NCBI GenBank assembly: GCA_018141785.1
Contig: CP073341.1
Span: 1,465,422 to 1,529,421 of the forward strand
Direction of reading: 5' to 3'
DNA length: 64,000 nucleotides
From: Candidatus Paraprochloron terpiosi LD05
GTDB taxonomy: Bacteria; Cyanobacteriota; Cyanobacteriia; Cyanobacteriales; Prochloraceae
A program made the position numbers and the translations under genes. How positions within the stretch are numbered: position 1 is the first letter of the stretch; each line of letters starts with the position of its first letter. Under the pieces are notes generated by a model that was not told the origin of the DNA, did no database searches, and saw nothing but the letters and a program-made list of their open reading frames with translations. Below, one piece after another: positions 25,727-43,927 of this stretch.

Positions 25727-27601
25727 ATGATAAATAAAAGAGGAAAAAAAAGACCACCAATTTGGCAACACCTCAGTAAAGTTGCCGCTAGTTTGCTGGT
25801 AGTGCAAGCTGTAATATTAGGAACCCCAGCTTTAACCAAACCTCAAGAAGAAGCGGAGAGCACATTACCCTATAACCAATTACTGGAGAAAATCGAGACA
25901 GGGGAAGTAACGAGAGTAGAACTGGATCGGCGAGGGAAGAAAGCAAAAGTAACTTTCCAAGGTCAAGAAAATCTCGTAGAAGTAGATTTATTAGACCGCA
26001 ACCCGGAACTAATCGAAAGTATTAACGCTGCTAATATAGAATTTGAGATTAAAGACTCTCCTGATAACTCCGCAGCCATTGGTATCGGGATTAATTTGCT
26101 GTTAGTCTTAGGGTTAATCTTGGGATTAGGAATGATAATCCGCCGTGCTGTCAGTGTTTCTGGGCAAGCCTTTAGCTTCGGCAAATCCAAAGCAAGGTTT
26201 GAAATGGAAGCCACAACAGGTATTACCTTCCAAGACGTAGCGGGAATTGAGGAAGCCAAAGAAGAATTGGCAGAAGTGGTCACCTTTCTGAAAGAACCGG
26301 AAAAATTCACCGCCATTGGAGCCAGAATTCCCAAGGGAGTGTTGCTAGTTGGTCCCCCAGGAACGGGAAAAACCCTCCTGGCTAAAGCAATTGCTGGGGA
26401 AGCAGGAGTACCTTTTTTCAGCGTCTCTGGGTCAGAATTCGTAGAGATGTTTGTGGGGGTGGGAGCCTCTCGGGTCAGAGATTTGTTCCACAAAGCGAAA
26501 GAAAATGCCCCAACTCTTGTGTTCATTGATGAAATTGACGCTGTGGGGCGGCAGCGGGGTGCCGGTATCGGCGGTGGGAACGACGAACGGGAACAAACTC
26601 TCAACCAATTGCTCACGGAAATGGACGGGTTTAAAGATAATGCTGGCATCATTATTATTGCCGCCACCAACCGTCCCGATGTCCTAGATTCAGCCCTTTT
26701 GCGTCCCGGAAGGTTCGATCGCCAAGTCATGGTAGATTACCCCGACTACCAAGCAAGGGAGAAAATTTTAGAAGTCCACGCTCGCAACAAAAAAATTGCT
26801 CCAGAAGTCTCTTTAAAAAAGATTGCCCGCCGTACTCCCGGTTTTAGCGGCGCCGATCTAGCTAACCTACTCAACGAAGCTGCTATCTTTACCGCCAGGA
26901 GGCGCAAAGAAGCCATCACCATCTCTGAAGTAAACGACGCCATTGATCGGGTCATAGCGGGAATGGAAGGAACTCCCTTGGTGGATAGCAAGAATAAGCG
27001 GTTGATTGCCTATCACGAAATTGGTCATGCTATCGTAAGTACATTAATACCCCATCACGATCCAGTGGAGAAAGTCACCCTCATTCCCAGAGGACAAGCT
27101 TTGGGGTTGACCTGGTACACTCCCAATGAAGAAATGGGTTTAACTACCAGAGCACAAATTATCGCTCAAATTGCTGGCATTCTGGGAGGTAGAGCAGCAG
27201 AAGAAGTTATTTTTGGTTGGTCTGAAGTTACTGATGGTGCTAGCGATGACTTGGAAAAGGTGACGGAGCGAGCCAGGAATATGGTGACACGGTTAGGAAT
27301 GTCCGCTCTGGGACCAATTGCTCTAGAAAACATGAATAACCAGGTATTTTTAGGCAACGATTGGACGAACCGTGTGGAATATTCCGAAGAAATAGGGGCG
27401 CGAATTGATAATCAAATGCGCAAAATAGTTTTTGACTGTTACGGACAGGCTAAAAAGATTATCCGGGAAAATCGCTCCGTTATAGATATGTTGGTAGATG
27501 TATTAATCCAACAGGAAGTTATAGAAGGTGATGACTTCCGTAAGCTTGTTTCTGAGTATACTGAGCTACAGGAGGAAAGGTTTACTTTAGCTAAAGGATG
27601 A
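25727..27601 (+). CDS. ftsH: ATP-dependent zinc metalloprotease FtsH
   Basis: Walker A GPPGTGKT, the SRH region, and the HEIGHA zinc site. Confidence 0.92.
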
Positions 27602-27801
27602 CCGGGGTTTGGTGTGATTGTCAAGCACCAGGATGTTGAGGAGCCGGATGAGGGGAAACTCTCACGTCCGGTTTTGTAGCCAGGTGGAGGAGGCGATCCC
27701 TTCATCTAGGTTTCAAGCCCCTCAACCCTAGCAGATGAGACTGAAAAAACAAACCTTCAAGCTTAAACAGAAGTACTTTAGAGGGATAGCTGTCTAAATC
27801 A

Positions 27802-38120: not shown

Positions 38121-38154
38121 AATCTATTAATAATAATCAAGATAGATTATCTTG
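38121..38154. promoter_or_regulatory. palindromic candidate operator sites upstream of ccmK2
   Basis: AATCTAT-N14-ATAGATT (38121-38148) overlaps the perfect 7-3-7 palindrome CAAGATA-gat-TATCTTG (38138-38154), about 100 nt upstream of the ccmK2 ATG. Confidence 0.25.
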
Positions 38155-38248
38155 TCAAAGGTGCCAATCTATCCTAGAGTGATTATTGAGACTGATAAAC
38201 TGGCAGCAGCTTGTCAATTTTCTAATGATTTAGAGGAAATAAAAAAAA

Positions 38249-38951: not shown

Positions 38952-39263
38952 ATGCAAATTGCCAAAGTGCGGGGTACCGTTGTTAGCACCCACAAAACTC
39001 CCAATCTCACGGGAGTGAAACTGCTCCTCTTGCAATTTATGAATGTAGATGGACAACCAGTACCAAAATACGAAGTAGCAGGAGATACGGTAGGAGCGGG
39101 GGTTAATGAGTGGGTGCTAGTCACTAGAGGTGGTGCAGCCCGCAAAGACAGGGGTAAGGAAGAATGTCCCCTGGATGCCATGGTAGTAGGGATTATCGAT
39201 ACGGTGACGGTGGAGAATCGCCTGCTTTATAGCAAAAAGGATGAATTTAGGACCAATTACTAA
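38952..39263 (+). CDS. ccmL: carboxysome vertex protein CcmL
   Basis: EutN/CcmL pattern MQIAKVRGTVVSTHKTPNLTGVKLLLLQ...AGDTVGAGVNEWVLVTRGGAAR. Confidence 0.92.
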   Translation: MQIAKVRGTVVSTHKTPNLTGVKLLLLQFMNVDGQPVPKYEVAGDTVGAGVNEWVLVTRGGAARKDRGKEECPLDAMVVGIIDTVTVENRLLYSKKDEFRTNY

Positions 39264-39495
39264 ACCTGGACAAATCTCATCAAAGATGATAAAACCAGAG
39301 CATTCAGATTGGTGGAGCTTCACCCCCGGCATTGGTAAATTCTTGGTCACGATACCCTGGAGTGCGCGCCAGCTCTGGGCTGCTATCGCTACTGATTAAA
39401 CAGGTGATGAATCAGTTGAAAAGTTCAGTAGCCTAACAGAGCTTTGATAGCCGTAGGATGCCCACGTTACCCAAAACCGGAGTTCACACAAAACC
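39264..39495 (+). ncRNA. candidate omega-RNA (HEARO-type) of the IscB element
   Basis: 232 nt with no plausible ORF directly 5' of iscB, which is the canonical omega-RNA position. Visible stems: CTGATT/AATCAG (39392-39397 and 39410-39415) and CCAGAGC/GCTCTGG (39295-39301 and 39372-39378). No covariance model was run. Confidence 0.4.
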
Positions 39496-40773
39496 ATGTG
39501 TAATTACGTTTTTGTTTTAGATACCAATCAAAAACCTCTTAATTCCTGTCGCCCTGTTACCGCTAGGAAACTGCTGACGGCAGGGAAGGCGGCTGTCTAC
39601 CGTCGCTACCCTTTCACCATCATTCTCAAAAAGTCCGTACAGAGCTCGAACAAACCAATGGAGCTAAAGATAGATCCTGGCTCTAAAACCACTGGTTTAG
39701 CTTTACTTATGGGCTCCCAAGTGATATGGGGAGCCCAATTAGAACACCGTGGGAGTCGAATAAAATCTGCTTTGGATTCTCGTCGCGCTGTTCGCAGGAA
39801 TCGCCGACACCGAAAAACCCGTTACCGAAAAGCACGTTTTTTAAATCGCCGCCGTCCTCCAGGTTGGTTGGCCCCAAGCTTACAGCACCGAGTAGAAACC
39901 ACCATGACTTGGGTGAGACGGCTGATGAATTTGACTCCCATTAGTTCTATTTCGCAAGAGTTGGTTCGGTTTGATACGCAAAGGATGCAAAACCCGGAAA
40001 TCTCAGGCACTCTGTATCAACAAGGGGAGTTAATGGGCTATGAAGTTCGGGAGTATCTGTTGGAGAAATGGGGCCGCCAATGTGCTTACTGTGGAACATC
40101 TTCTGTTCCACTCGAAATAGAACACATCGTTCCCAAATCCAAAGGTGGAACCGATAGAGTATCCAATCTCACCTTAGCGTGCAATCCCTGTAACCAGGCT
40201 AAAGGGAATCTTGATATTCGGGATTTTTTATCAGGAAAACCGGATTTGTGCAAGCGGATTTTAGGCCTCACCGCAGGCACGTTAAAAGATGCTGCGGCTG
40301 TCAACACTACCCGTTGGAAACTTTATCGAAGTCTGAAAGAAACTGGATTGCCCGTAGCGGTAGGTACTGGCTCCAGAACTAAGTACAACAGGATGAGGCT
40401 GGACTTGCCCAAGTCTCACTGGCTTGATGCCGCTTGTGTAGAGGAGATAACGAAATTAAAGGTTTTAACAAATCAATCTCTTCAAATCAAAGCCATGGGG
40501 CACGGGTGCCGTCAGGTTATCCAGATGGATAAATATGGCTTTCCTCGTAAAGGATACAAACCTAAGCAACCTGTCAAAGGTTGGAAAACCGGAGATATCG
40601 TTAATGTGGTAGCAGGCAAAAATGTTGGATTACAAGGGGTAAGAATTAAAACCGTGCGAGCGAAAGGTAATTTTGATCTACGGGTTGGGTACGGCGTGGT
40701 CAGCGCATCTCGCAACCACATTCAGCCGGTTCATCGCCAAGATGGCTATTGCTATAGCTTTGTCGAATTATAA
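39496..40773 (+). CDS. iscB: IscB RNA-guided nuclease (PLMP - RuvC-I - bridge helix - RuvC-II - HNH - RuvC-III - TID)
   Basis: VFVLDTNQKPLNSCRPVTARKLLTAGKAAVYRRYPFTIILK; KIDPGSKTTGLAL; RRAVRRNRRHRKTRYRKARFLNRRRP; ISQELVRFD; CAYCG..EIEHIVPKSKGGTDRVSNLTLACNPCNQAKG; SHWLDAACV; C-terminal GWKTGDIVNV...RQDGYCY. Confidence 0.85.
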   Translation: MCNYVFVLDTNQKPLNSCRPVTARKLLTAGKAAVYRRYPFTIILKKSVQSSNKPMELKIDPGSKTTGLALLMGSQVIWGAQLEHRGSRIKSALDSRRAVRRNRRHRKTRYRKARFLNRRRPPGWLAPSLQHRVETTMTWVRRLMNLTPISSISQELVRFDTQRMQNPEISGTLYQQGELMGYEVREYLLEKWGRQCAYCGTSSVPLEIEHIVPKSKGGTDRVSNLTLACNPCNQAKGNLDIRDFLSGKPDLCKRILGLTAGTLKDAAAVNTTRWKLYRSLKETGLPVAVGTGSRTKYNRMRLDLPKSHWLDAACVEEITKLKVLTNQSLQIKAMGHGCRQVIQMDKYGFPRKGYKPKQPVKGWKTGDIVNVVAGKNVGLQGVRIKTVRAKGNFDLRVGYGVVSASRNHIQPVHRQDGYCYSFVEL

Positions 40774-40811
40774 GTAGGTTTGATAAGTTTTTTTGTTGGA
40801 GGAATTGAGAG

Positions 40812-42788
40812 ATGGTAGTCCGCAAAACGGCGGCTCCCCCGACTCCTTGGTCGAGAAGTTTAGCGGAACCTAAAATAGATGAGAGTGCCTACGTTCATTC
40901 CTTCTCCCTTGTTCTTGGAGATGTGAAAGTAGGAAGCGGGGTGCTAATTGCCCCGGGAACTTCTATTAGGGCTGATGAAGGCACTCCCTTCCATATTGGC
41001 AATGGGACCAATATTCAGGACGGAGTGGTGATTCACGGACTGGAGCAAGGTCGGTGCCAGGGGGATGATGGTCAGGATTACTCCGTCTGGATAGGCAAGG
41101 AGACCTGCATTACCCACATGGCTCTGATTCATGGTCCAGCTTATGTTGGGGATAACTGCTTTGTTGGCTTTCGTTCCACGGTATTTAACGCCAAATTGGG
41201 ACATGGCTGTATTGTGATGATGCACGCCCTCATTCAGGATGTGGAAATTCCCCCAGGGAAATACATCCCCTCTGGGGCTGTGATTACGAATCAGCAGCAA
41301 GCGGATCGGTTACCGGACGTGACTGATGCTGATCGCGGTTTTGCCAGTCATGTGGTGGAAATTAATGAAGCTTTGCGAGCAGGCTATCAGTGTGCCAAAG
41401 ATACCGCTTGTATTGCTCCGATTCGCAATGAACTGAATAGTTCTAACCCCCGCCAAAATGGTACTAACTATATAAATTCGATGGATTCTATGAACAGTTT
41501 ACAGGTCGAAATCAAGCAACAGGTAAGAAATCTCCTCCAATCAGGATATAAAATCAGTACGGAACATGCTAATAAACGTCGGTTTAAAACCAGTTCTTGG
41601 TTATCTGGTCCCAGTATTATCGGTTCTCGGGAAGACCAAGTCATGGCTGAGTTACAAAGAGCTGCTGGAGAACACCCAGGAGAATATGTCCGTTTGCTGG
41701 GAATAGACCCAAAAGGGAAGCGGCGGGTTCTGGAAATGATTATTCAACGACCTGGGGATGGTGAAGTTCAAAGTTTTAATGGACTTTCCGCACCTACAGT
41801 TAATTATAGCAGTGTGGCTGCCAGCAATAATGGCAGTTTAAATGGGGGCATACCAGAGCAAGTATCTAATCTTCTCGCTCAAGGATACAAAATCGGCATC
41901 GAACACGCCAATAAACGTCGTTTCAAAACCAGTTCTTGGCTTAGTGGACCAGTGCTGCAAGGTCAAAATAGTCAAGTACTCAGAGATTTAGAAGGGATTT
42001 TGGCAGAATATTCAGGAGAATACGTCCGCTTGCTGGGCATTGACCCGAAATCCAAGCGACGGGTATTAGAGCAAGTAATTCAAAGACCAGGAGAAAGCCA
42101 AAGTTTAGGTAATGGTTCCACCACAACTTCCAATTATAGCAGTTACAACCAGGGAAATACAGCACAAGGTGGTTTGAGTGCAGAAACAGTCCAACAGGTA
42201 CGCTCCCTCCTATCTCAAGGATACAAAATTGGTACGGAACACGCCAATAAGCGACGCTTCAAAACCAGTTCTTGGCAAAGCTGTTCCCCTATTGATAGTA
42301 ACCGAGAGTCGGAAGTAATTGCCGCATTGGAAGCTTGCTTGCAGGAACACCAAGGAGAGTATGTCCGCCTCCTAGGTATTGACTCAAAAGCCAAGCGACG
42401 GGTGTTAGAGAAGATTATCCAACGTCCTTCTGATAATGGCACTGTGATCCAGGAGAGAGCAACAGCAACAAGTTACACTGCGACAGTTCCTAGTAATAAT
42501 GGCAGTGTTGGGGTTGAAACTAGCAGTAGCTTGAGTAGCGATGCAGTCCAACAGGTACGCTCTCTCCTGTCTCAAGGGTACAAAATTGGTACAGAACACG
42601 CCAACAAGCGTCGTTTCAAAACCAGTTCTTGGCAAAGCTGTTCCCCCATTGAAAGTAACCGGGAATCAGATGTAATTGCAGCATTGGAAGCTTGCTTGCA
42701 GGAACACCAAGGAGAGTATGTCCGTTTGATTGGTATTGACTCAAAAGCCAAGCGGCGGGTGTCGGAAACCATTATCCAAAGACCTTAA
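40812..42788 (+). CDS. ccmM: carboxysome assembly protein CcmM (gamma-CA-like domain plus four RbcS-like SSUL repeats)
   Basis: The N-terminus has gamma-carbonic-anhydrase left-handed beta-helix motifs. There are four repeats of QV(R/S)[24 protein letters not shown]...GEYVRLxGID.K.KRRV (about 41517-42785). Repeats 3 and 4 are about 90 percent identical at the nucleotide level with a 357-nt period. Confidence 0.92.
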
Positions 42789-42943: not shown

Positions 42944-43423
42944 AGGAAACCATCTATGCTGCCAAAAGCACGCGAAGCATACCCCAATGAAAGATAATGG
43001 TCACAGATAACTTTACTAATGCTGTAAAAGTTTATTATTTGCCACCAATCCTACCTATTAGTAATAATCGCATTTACGTGAGTGGCGATGTGACAATTCA
43101 TCCTTCTGCCGCAGTAGCTTCTGGAGCAGTCCTCCAAGCTGCTCCTAACAGTAAAATTGTCATTGGTGCTGGAGCAATAGTCAACAGGAAACCACCTATG
43201 CTGCCAAAAACAAGCAATGCATACTATATTACATGATAAAATTTTTTATAACTTTTATCATGCAGGAAAAGTTAATAAACTGCCACAAATTCTACCTATT
43301 AATCATAATCGCATTTACGTGAGTGGCGATGTGACAATTCATCCTTCTGCCGCAGTAGCTTCTGGAGCAGTCCTCCAAGCTGCTCCTAATAGTAAAATTG
43401 TCATTGGGGCTGGAGCAATAGTC
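42944..43423 (+). repeat. tandem duplication (~241-242 nt unit) covering the ccmN upstream region and its first ~55 codons
   Basis: aggaaaccaTctatgctgccaaaagca (42944) matches aggaaaccaCctatgctgccaaaaaca (43186). The 120-nt blocks 43063-43182 and 43304-43423 are nearly identical. A third partial copy of taatgctgtaa...ccaatcctacctattagt lies at 42818-42860. Confidence 0.85.
42997..43236 (+). pseudogene. truncated duplicate of the ccmN 5' end
   Basis: The 79-aa ORF contains NNRIYVSGDVTIHPSAAVASGAVLQAAPNSKIVIGAGAIV, identical to CcmN residues, and then runs into the duplication junction. Confidence 0.5.
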
Positions 43424-43927
43424 GGTATGGGAGCAGTCTTAAATGCTTATGACGGCGCTCTGGAAATCGAAAGCGGTGCAGTCTTGGGAGCTGGGGTTTT
43501 GATAGTAGGTGCGGGAAAAATCGGTGCTAATGCCTGTATTGGCACCGCCACCACCATTTTTAATGGAGACATTCCTCAGGGGGCAACATTAGCTCAGGGT
43601 TCCCTCATTGGCGATCCATCTCGTTCCATTACCGAGTCAAGGGAGACAAAAACAGATCAAGATGAAGTAAAAGAGGAGTCTGAGGGAACCTCAGAAGGGA
43701 AAGAAGATGAGAACGCGGTATCCCCAGAACCAGAAGTTATCGATAATGAAGCGTCAGCAGAACCGGAAGTTAATATTGAAGTGTCTAAAGATAAAGCGGA
43801 ACCATCTTCTTCTGAGCAGCAGCAGCCAAATGCACCAGTGGTAGGTAAAGTTTATATTAACCAACTGCTACTTACTCTTTTTCCTCAAGGACAAAATTTA
43901 AACAATCGCCAAAAACAGGTACCATGA
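43217..43927 (+). CDS. ccmN: carboxysome assembly protein CcmN
   Basis: Hexapeptide-repeat N-terminal domain, an acidic linker, and a C-terminal encapsulation-peptide-like VYINQLLLTLFPQGQ. The ATG lies inside the duplication junction. Confidence 0.8.
   Translation: MHTILHDKIFYNFYHAGKVNKLPQILPINHNRIYVSGDVTIHPSAAVASGAVLQAAPNSKIVIGAGAIVGMGAVLNAYDGALEIESGAVLGAGVLIVGAGKIGANACIGTATTIFNGDIPQGATLAQGSLIGDPSRSITESRETKTDQDEVKEESEGTSEGKEDENAVSPEPEVIDNEASAEPEVNIEVSKDKAEPSSSEQQQPNAPVVGKVYINQLLLTLFPQGQNLNNRQKQVP

Follow-up and report, generated by a model that had tools for sequence, protein, structure and literature searches.

A non-autonomous IscB element between ccmL and ccmM in the carboxysome locus of Candidatus Paraprochloron terpiosi LD05, with an intact nuclease gene and an apparently eroded omega-RNA scaffold

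A stretch of 64,000 nt from Candidatus Paraprochloron terpiosi LD05 (assembly GCA_018141785.1, CP073341.1:1,465,422-1,529,421, forward strand; hereafter the window, in which all positions are given unless a comparison locus such as L002 is named) was found to carry a 1548-bp IscB element at 39251-40798 on the + strand, between the carboxysome genes ccmL and ccmM. Our interpretation, which we hold to be highly probable, is that the insert belongs to the non-autonomous ISC elements of the IS200/IS605 superfamily and is made up of an omega-RNA region and an iscB gene, and that it inserted seamlessly, is transcribed by read-through, follows the logic of a homing element and is possibly in early decay. 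An earlier reading of the same DNA, made without database searches (the sequence-only reading), had described an intact IscB element of the OMEGA or HEARO type within the carboxysome operon, and its claims are taken up below with the results that bear on them.

Boundaries of the element and its effect on ccmL and ccmM

For comparison, 80 cyanobacterial ccmL loci were fetched and the carboxysome proteins and IscB were mapped on each. The beta-carboxysome locus of the window lies on the + strand and comprises ccmK2 (from 38249), ccmK1 (from 38610), ccmL (38952-39263, 103 aa; Pfam EutN_CcmL, 6.4e-32), ccmM (40812-42788), ccmN (43217-43927) and rbcL (from 44350), with the iscB open reading frame (ORF) sitting between ccmL and ccmM. 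Three near-identical loci were found to have no insert at this junction: the closest one, L005, from Candidatus Paraprochloron terpiosi SP5CPC1 (CcmL 98% identical to that of the window), and two sponge-metagenome contigs, L160 and L162 (flanks 95-97% identical to the window). Over all three, the flanks were 95-98% identical to the window and CcmK1 was identical. The empty junction in each reads TTTAGGAGGAATT, that is, the left and right flanks of the window joined with 0-3 nt of microhomology, and no target-site duplication was seen in the window in this comparison; alignment to the empty loci extends on the left to 39252-39259 and resumes on the right from 40798, with a 3-nt GGA ambiguity. 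These empty sites confirm the proposal of the sequence-only reading that a foreign insert splits ccmK2-K1-L from ccmM-N, and the junction alignment with insert-free relatives that it had suggested as a check defined both the ends and a seamless target site. The insertion point is TTTAG|GAGGAATT, within the ancestral 6-nt gap between ccmL and ccmM and in the orientation of the operon, and both boundaries may move jointly by 0 to +2 nt because of a GA microhomology.

The ends were also read from copies of the element elsewhere. The closest IscB relative (81% amino acid identity; protein P0001) is encoded at locus L002, on a 4.7-Mb ENA contig (ERZ22157276 ctg13830c), and the second closest (77%; protein P0002) at locus L003, in Moorena; both copies stand in contexts unrelated to the carboxysome locus and have both ends homologous to those of the window. 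On the 5' side the similarity of L002 and L003 with the window starts at GACCAAT, the left flanks being unrelated, and on the 3' side it runs past the iscB stop and a 25-nt tail, the transposase-proximal end, to ...TTTGTTG (L002) or ...TTTGTAG (L003), then through GAG, and ends there. In L002 (5571-7723) the element lies inside ptuB of a Septu PtuA/PtuB defence pair, where it splits the HNH catalytic motif. Its removal in silico restored a 199-aa PtuB (PADLOC E 1.4e-78) beside PtuA (E 1e-155), and the resulting joint, CACATT|GAGCAT, rebuilds HIEHFRP exactly as in a solved PtuB. The element thus spans 39251-40798, overlapping the last ccmL codons and stop, and not 39264-40790 as first proposed. 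A start at 39250 with GGAG as the flank was rejected, the L002 equivalent giving HMEHF and not the PtuB consensus HIEHF, as was a 3-bp GGA target-site duplication, the L002 flanks having no duplication and the family making none (Kapitonov et al. 2016, PMC4810608); a resemblance of an internal GAC to the flanking GAG was preferred as the explanation. In the same study, the duplication-free ISC insertions were located at xx|GG, xx|GA and N|ATGA sites.

Directly after the element stands GAG (40799-40801, + strand), inside the ccmM Shine-Dalgarno sequence, and GAG flanks the 3' end in 7 of the 8 distinct loci that have the same short 3' tail. In the IscB elements described by Meers et al. (2023), one transposon end delimits the HEARO-like omega-RNA region that precedes iscB, a target-adjacent motif (TAM) recognised by both TnpA and the nuclease abuts the opposite transposon end, and a motif inside the element at the omega-RNA end resembles, but differs from, the TAM. 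By this geometry GAG is the putative TAM of the window element, and a GAC inside the element at its omega-RNA end resembles it. A general role of GAG or GGAG in this subfamily as the ribosome-binding site (RBS) of the downstream gene was discarded, the other loci having no start codon at a suitable distance. The TTAC at 39257-39260 (+ strand), taken by the sequence-only reading for an IS200/IS605-type target, is part of the element, 7-10 nt from its left end, where it belongs to the 5' strand of omega-RNA helix P1, and it is conserved in L003 at an unrelated locus; it is not the target site, and the flanking motif that is conserved is the 3' GAG.

Pfam on ten ORFs and a crude HUH-motif screen revealed no tnpA in the 64-kb window, and no second copy of the element was found in the window; in the data searched, one copy only is visible. 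The element is non-autonomous, as had been claimed from the missing tnpA, and in the survey by Meers et al. (2023) tnpA was near only about 1.5% of iscB loci (about 98% being non-autonomous).

In L005 the ccmL stop and the ccmM ATG are separated by 6 nt (...GAATTTAGGAGGAATTAAGAGATG). In the window the C-terminus of CcmL, T-N-Y, and its TAA stop (39252-39263; ACC AAT TAC TAA) are element sequence, and the ancestral end ...FRRN* has become ...FRTNY*, the last two residues being replaced by three element-derived ones and a stop. On the other side, the sequence after insertion reads ...TTG|GAGGAATTGAGAGATG and so regenerates the ccmM ribosome-binding site, with the Shine-Dalgarno GGAGG at 40798-40802 and the start codon kept directly after the element. 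The element-derived RTNY C-terminus was also present in contigs from three independent SRA samples, and in L001 (SRR18788998), an independent contig and the only one to span the whole insert, the element was 100% identical to that of the window. Differences between L001 and the window numbered 14, of which 13 fall in the repeated RuBisCO-small-subunit-like modules of ccmM (41467-42089) and none in the IscB element. An independent assembly of the same locus from SRR14292612 (L157/L163) ends 12 nt into the element (window 39262), a break for which low coverage, a repeat or the co-occurrence of filled and empty alleles might be responsible. Among the papers retrieved, none was found to describe an IscB in a carboxysome operon; a survey of carboxysome loci has noted that the main locus may be interrupted by single foreign genes.

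The IscB protein and its omega-RNA scaffold

The 425-aa ORF at 39496-40773 (+ strand) is a member of the IscB family. Pfam RRXRR was matched over residues 5-177 (E 1.8e-72) and Pfam HNH over residues 196-238 (E 5.7e-13), and phmmer against the PDB returned IscBs at 1e-38 to 1e-26, among them TbaIscB (2.6e-38) and OgeuIscB (8e-29), with alignments beginning at residue 4-5 of the ORF; IsrB was matched by sequence over the RuvC part. The HNH domain lies between RuvC-II and RuvC-III, the trait that separates IscB from IsrB. Motifs were located at 59 (IDPGS), 154 (QELVRFD), 207 (EIEHIVP), 229 (CNPCNQAKG) and 307 (SHWLDAAC). D60 of RuvC-I, E155 of RuvC-II and H308 and D311 of RuvC-III fall in family-invariant columns aligned to the RuvC motifs of solved IscBs, and the HNH catalytic and zinc residues are kept (H210, N233; C196, C199, C229, C232). 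When aligned with the family (19 members in one alignment, 36 in another), the window protein retained all invariant residues and showed 5 deviations, one of them P17S, at near-invariant columns, within a family range of 1-10. The arginine-rich bridge helix is conserved (R96-R118; helix predicted at 86-103). The identification as an IscB with intact catalytic residues, made by eye in the sequence-only reading, is upheld by these domain matches, by the fold and by the family-invariant columns, and the comparison with OgeuIscB that it had called for confirmed the D/E/H/D and HNH residues. Among its hallmarks, IDPGS, QELVRFD, HNH and HWLDAA were present as named, and the exception was the N-terminal 'PLMP' motif, which reads PLNS owing to P17S.

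An AlphaFold (AF2) model built from 36 homologues had a mean pLDDT of 76 and a pTM of 0.65, with a beta-rich C-terminal third. In a Foldseek search of the PDB with this model each of the top 10 matches was an IscB or IsrB-omega-RNA-DNA complex, with full-length alignments at E 1.7e-22 to 1.4e-12, and Cas9s came next. The span of these alignments over full-length IscB and the beta-rich C-terminal third agree with the TAM-interacting-domain (TID)-like C-terminus proposed earlier. Many of the homologues carry the JGI label '5-methylcytosine-specific restriction endonuclease McrA', by which the ORF would be an McrA-type HNH restriction endonuclease and not a guided nuclease, a chance we regard as negligible: a RuvC/RRXRR part is present over residues 5-177, the full-length matches of sequence and fold go to IscB, and EcoKMcrA aligns to the HNH core only (E 0.17 by sequence, rank 49 by fold). 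The RRXRR/RuvC domain, the PDB sequence matches and the Foldseek ranking rule out an McrA-type identity, and the grouping with McrA that the sequence-only reading had named as a reason to abandon its claim was not what the fold comparison gave. Thousands of homologues were found, many of them named 'RNA-guided endonuclease IscB' by NCBI, and none exceeded 81% identity in a search of 5.8 billion protein sequences. The ratio of non-synonymous to synonymous substitution rates (dN/dS) was 0.10 against L002 and 0.12 against L003, with dS saturated. The ORF is intact and has historically been under purifying selection.

Upstream of iscB, the region at 39251-39470 (+ strand) was recognised as an omega-RNA scaffold homologous to HEARO from alignment to the HEARO-positive L002 and L003, mapping of base pairs, duplex energies and minimum free energy (MFE) folds. 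At the Rfam gathering score of HEARO (RF02033; 83 bits), no match was obtained in the window. A permissive search gave one local match of 28.7 bits at 39352-39438 (+ strand), the only stretch recognised, covering model positions 93-179 of 211 (E 0.0014 when 1.8 kb was searched and 0.05 for the window as a whole). All 16 relatives searched gave full-length HEARO matches (model 1-211) of 52-160 bits that stop about 25 nt upstream of the iscB ATG, including L002 (78.9 bits), L003 (85.7) and L006 (87.6), a locus described below. Nevertheless, the window aligns to the HEARO of L002 and L003 from the first nucleotide of the element (GACCAATTAC onward) through ACGTTAC at 39464-39470, which places the omega-RNA locus directly 5' of iscB as the sequence-only reading had done. 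The 5' region, of which it had described 232 nt as free of ORFs, is HEARO-homologous over the 220 nt given above and is overlapped by a 52-aa ORF at 39241-39399; the covariance-model check that it had proposed yielded nothing at the gathering score and a partial, local match below it, so that the lack of a HEARO hit, which it had named as refuting, applies by half.

When the HEARO base pairs were transferred pair by pair from the L002 match, the window was seen to keep 7 of the 8 pairs of P1, the small hairpin, all 10 pairs of the central hairpin and the outer stem of the large hairpin, the distal part of which is shorter by about 7-8 nt. The 4-bp closing helix GCUC/GAGC retains 1 of its 4 pairs, indels of 4-8 nt are present in the scaffold, and of the 11 bp of a long-range helix 5 can form in the window as against 11 in L002 and 10 in L003. 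This helix is the best-supported structure of the family, with compensatory changes detected by RNAalifold in 5 of its 6 core pairs; the 6-pair core is complete in 14 of the 16 relatives and reaches 5 of 6 in the window only if two window-specific nucleotides are dropped as a 2-nt bulge. The duplex energy was -5.2 kcal/mol in the window, compared to -18.2 in L002 and -12.2 in L003. MFE folds of L002 and L003 reproduced the HEARO architecture, and the fold of the window was not HEARO-like and had no greater stability than shuffles (z = -0.9); a compensatory helix GGCAUU/GAUGCC picked out by eye was set aside as speculation on this ground.

The element has a mosaic composition. It resembles L002 in the 5' half of the omega-RNA and in the last ~300 nt (40497-40798, + strand), the latter being 92-100% identical to L002 in most windows of comparison with a dip to 70-77% at ~40647-40721, set against ~70% outside these 300 nt; in the 3' part of the omega-RNA and at the start of iscB it resembles L003. 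This pattern points to recombination among IscB elements, and part of the scaffold damage looks recombinational: at two covarying pairs the window combines the 5' bases of L002 with the 3' bases of L003, leaving U×U mismatches. Recombination alone was rejected as the cause of the broken helix, as a chimera of the L002 5' strand and the L003 3' strand still gave -11.0 kcal/mol; most of the harm is therefore done by a window-specific 4-nt loss in the 5' strand (AACCGCTATC in L002), from AACCGCUAUC to AAAUUC, together with 5'-strand substitutions. The omega-RNA is, on these alignments and folds, present by homology but apparently eroded in structure, and with a partial Rfam match and a destabilised core long-range helix its function as a guide RNA is doubtful. 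Of the 'intact' OMEGA element announced by the sequence-only reading, the nuclease ORF is indeed intact, but the scaffold is not and the activity of the system is doubtful.

Read-through, guide and the present state of the element

No terminator-like or promoter-like site on the + strand was found between 39250 and 40812 by pattern scan, and a promoter-like site was located at 38152-38180, in the ccmK2 promoter region. Since neither a promoter nor a terminator can be recognised within the element, transcription of the omega-RNA, iscB and ccmM-ccmN probably depends on read-through that starts at the ccmK2 promoter. Such read-through fits the published co-orientation of IscB elements with the upstream gene (Meers et al. 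2023), and the element would be tolerated because the translation signals of ccmM survive.

IscB uses guides of 16 nt. With the scaffold starting exactly at the insertion boundary, the RNA lying 5' of it, from the last ccmL codons (39235-39250, + strand; AAAAGGATGAATTTAG, the 16 nt of ccmL directly 5' of the element), could serve as the guide, by the geometry of Meers et al. (2023) and in agreement with the earlier suggestion that the 3' end of ccmL templates it. This putative guide template plus GAG equals the empty ccmL-ccmM junction in L005, L160 and L162, and for that reason an active IscB-omega-RNA complex would be expected to cut chromosome copies that lack or have lost the element, in which recombination would then reinstall it.

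Whether the element still behaves in this manner depends on how its nuclease and scaffold are weighed. It could be a fully active, selfish homing element, whose native omega-RNA folds, guides IscB to the empty junction and enforces retention in a likely polyploid chromosome, but we find this doubtful. The ORF is unbroken, retains every catalytic residue and has no excess of substitutions, the element is identical in an independent sample, the guide plus GAG matches the empty site of sister genomes, and P1, the central hairpin, the outer stem of the large hairpin and the 3' ACGTTAC tail are kept; set against this are a HEARO score of 28.7 bits where 16 relatives reach 52-160, a covariation-supported core helix weakened to the -5.2 kcal/mol given above, a closing helix reduced to 1 of 4 pairs and the 4-8 nt indels of the scaffold. 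Moreover, with no tnpA found in the window, the excision that homing counteracts may not occur at all.

A view of what may lie ahead was provided by a sister lineage. L006, which belongs to OZ240666.1 of 'Prochloron sp.' (L006/L161), was the only one of the 80 ccmL loci fetched to have an IscB between ccmL and ccmM, and the same junction in the ENA contig ctg13830c (L159) is likewise occupied; both are complete genomes. They match the window at 91-94% identity in the flanks and fully in CcmK1. The IscB is a different one (54% identical to that of the window), inserted in the same orientation. This insert (L006 4290-6195) is seamless at ...AAGAAGG|ATGAATTT, 10 bp upstream of the window site, and its flanking motif ATGA (AAGG|ATGA) is of the N|ATGA target type published by Kapitonov et al. 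Its omega-RNA starts at the junction (GTAACC...), and the first omega-RNA hairpin is split by a 171-bp miniature inverted-repeat transposable element (MITE), whose inverted ends are imperfect and 31 nt long and which is accompanied by a 9-bp duplication, CTCTAAAGA. The IscB departs from conserved columns at 13 positions, carries the RuvC substitution D60N and contains three in-frame insertions. Inside the MITE there is an array of 8-bp tandem repeats, and two short repeat families (CAATTACGAAGTAACCGCCCAAGGCGTCCC and the palindromic CCCACCCCTCTTCTCCCCTCCCGGGAGGGGATGGGGGTGGG) lie inside and just after the decayed iscB (L006 4909-4938 and 5506-5535; 5163-5203 and 6146-6186), the copies within the ORF being inserted in frame.

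The ccmL-ccmM junction has thus been struck twice, in the same orientation, by different ISC families, and the older hit in L006 may show a possible future of the window copy. That the window element is already a passive relic on this path, neither mobile nor RNA-guided and fixed by drift in a small, host-restricted symbiont population, is a reading we consider evenly balanced between right and wrong. The eroded omega-RNA speaks for it, as do the single visible copy (with none else in the window and no homologue above 81% in the protein search) and the end-state of the sister lineage, with D60N, in-frame insertions and a MITE in the omega-RNA. The best flank matches of this sponge-symbiont-like cyanobacterium were sponge-metagenome and Paraprochloron loci, consistent with a host-restricted symbiont. 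An IscB ORF without any decay is unexpected under long relaxed selection, and the insertion may simply be young.

A third reading takes the two independent IscB insertions at one junction in sister lineages, and the precise preservation of the ccmM ribosome-binding site, as signs of a domesticated or regulatory insert, in which attenuated read-through would shift the dosage of ccmM and ccmN relative to ccmK and ccmL or IscB would act as a host factor. This seems to us very unlikely: the near-identical genomes L005, L160 and L162 do well without the insert, the second insert is visibly decaying, so that no function is preserved there, and neither a terminator, a promoter nor a new domain in the sequence points to regulation. 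Possible causes of the recurrence itself are that insertions are filtered by tolerance, that strong read-through transcription is needed, or that the site is a hotspot of single-stranded DNA. IscB elements might land at this junction by preference or be favoured there by selection, a suggestion that we rate as rather improbable. If true, it would mean that IscB elements exploit strongly transcribed and indispensable operons, in which the operon transcript supplies both expression of a promoter-less omega-RNA and its guide, a TAM overlapping the ribosome-binding site keeps the insertion harmless, and the essential neighbourhood protects the element from deletion.

Our preferred interpretation, a homing-type ISC element that may be in early decay, immobile and passively carried, has several points weighing against it. 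The 16-nt guide and GAG as TAM are both inferred. The interpretation does not account for an intact ORF beside a damaged scaffold; with P1, the central hairpin and the conserved single-stranded motifs preserved, the scaffold might still function. Since dS is saturated, the low dN/dS describes the long history of the lineage and not the time since insertion. The subterminal hairpins typical of IS200/IS605 ends are weak, with a small hairpin 45-60 nt from the 3' end of the element (DNA fold z = -2.3) and a 5'-end DNA fold no better than shuffles.

Two further features of the window lie outside the element. A tandem duplication of ~241 bp (42944-43182 and 43186-43423; 91% identical over a 176-nt core) holds the start region of ccmN and yields an extra 79-aa ORF (42997-43236) repeating the CcmN N-terminus; the unit is single-copy in L005, L160 and L162. 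At 27638-27722 (+ strand), 37 nt past the stop of ftsH (25727-27601), a match to group II intron domains V and VI was found (RF00029, 49 bits; RF04357, 62 bits), with no reverse-transcriptase ORF nearby, and looks like the 3' remnant of an intron.

Relation to known IscB systems

The protein, the organisation and the insertion behaviour described here are of the known cyanobacterial IscB/ISC/HEARO kind, and the failure to reach the HEARO gathering score lowers the claim to an intact OMEGA system and not the claim to an IscB element. It is unusual in where it lies, in regenerating the ribosome-binding site of ccmM, in its recurrence at one junction and in combining an intact nuclease with a scaffold that is damaged. 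With a filled site, three empty sites and a second insertion in near-identical genomes, the locus offers a cleanly resolved natural case of an IscB/omega-RNA element, and the availability of these genomes allows the ends, the flanking motif and the guide template to be read to within 2 nt. Regeneration of the ribosome-binding site at the element end would explain how a 1.5-kb foreign gene is tolerated inside a core carboxysome operon. For the discovery of editing tools little is gained, hundreds of cyanobacterial IscBs of 60-80% identity being already annotated; the intact nuclease beside a recombinant, destabilised scaffold amounts to a natural experiment, on a small scale, in which helices an omega-RNA can do without.

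Compared with the characterised IscB/OMEGA systems (OgeuIscB; PDB 7xht, 7utn, 8csz), the window protein has the same order of PLMP-type domain, RuvC-I, bridge helix, RuvC-II, HNH, RuvC-III and beta-rich C-terminus, the same catalytic D/E/H/D and HNH residues, a length of ~425 aa and no recognition (REC) lobe, and the omega-RNA likewise lies directly upstream on the same strand. It differs from the solved IscBs in sharing only ~20% identity with them and in reading PLNS for PLMP, and its omega-RNA differs in falling below the Rfam HEARO threshold with a weakened core helix. Closer kin are the cyanobacterial ISC transposons (PMC4810608) and the HEARO elements of Arthrospira/Limnospira, Okeania and Moorena, which are of the same family (60-81% identity) and are also non-autonomous and seamless, with a short specific 3' flanking motif and ends common to copies, whereas the window element was seen as one copy, inside a main carboxysome locus, with a GAG that coincides with the ribosome-binding site. 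The ISGst elements (2023) share a guide just outside the omega-RNA-proximal end, a conserved motif abutting the other end, an internal near-copy of that motif (GAC versus GAG here) and co-orientation with the upstream gene; in contrast to these, no TnpA partner was identified for the window element in the window search and its subterminal hairpins are weak. The L006-type insert is alike in its ccmL-ccmM junction, its orientation and an omega-RNA starting at the junction, and differs in its IscB (54% amino acid identity), its ATGA motif, its site 10 bp upstream and its heavy decay.

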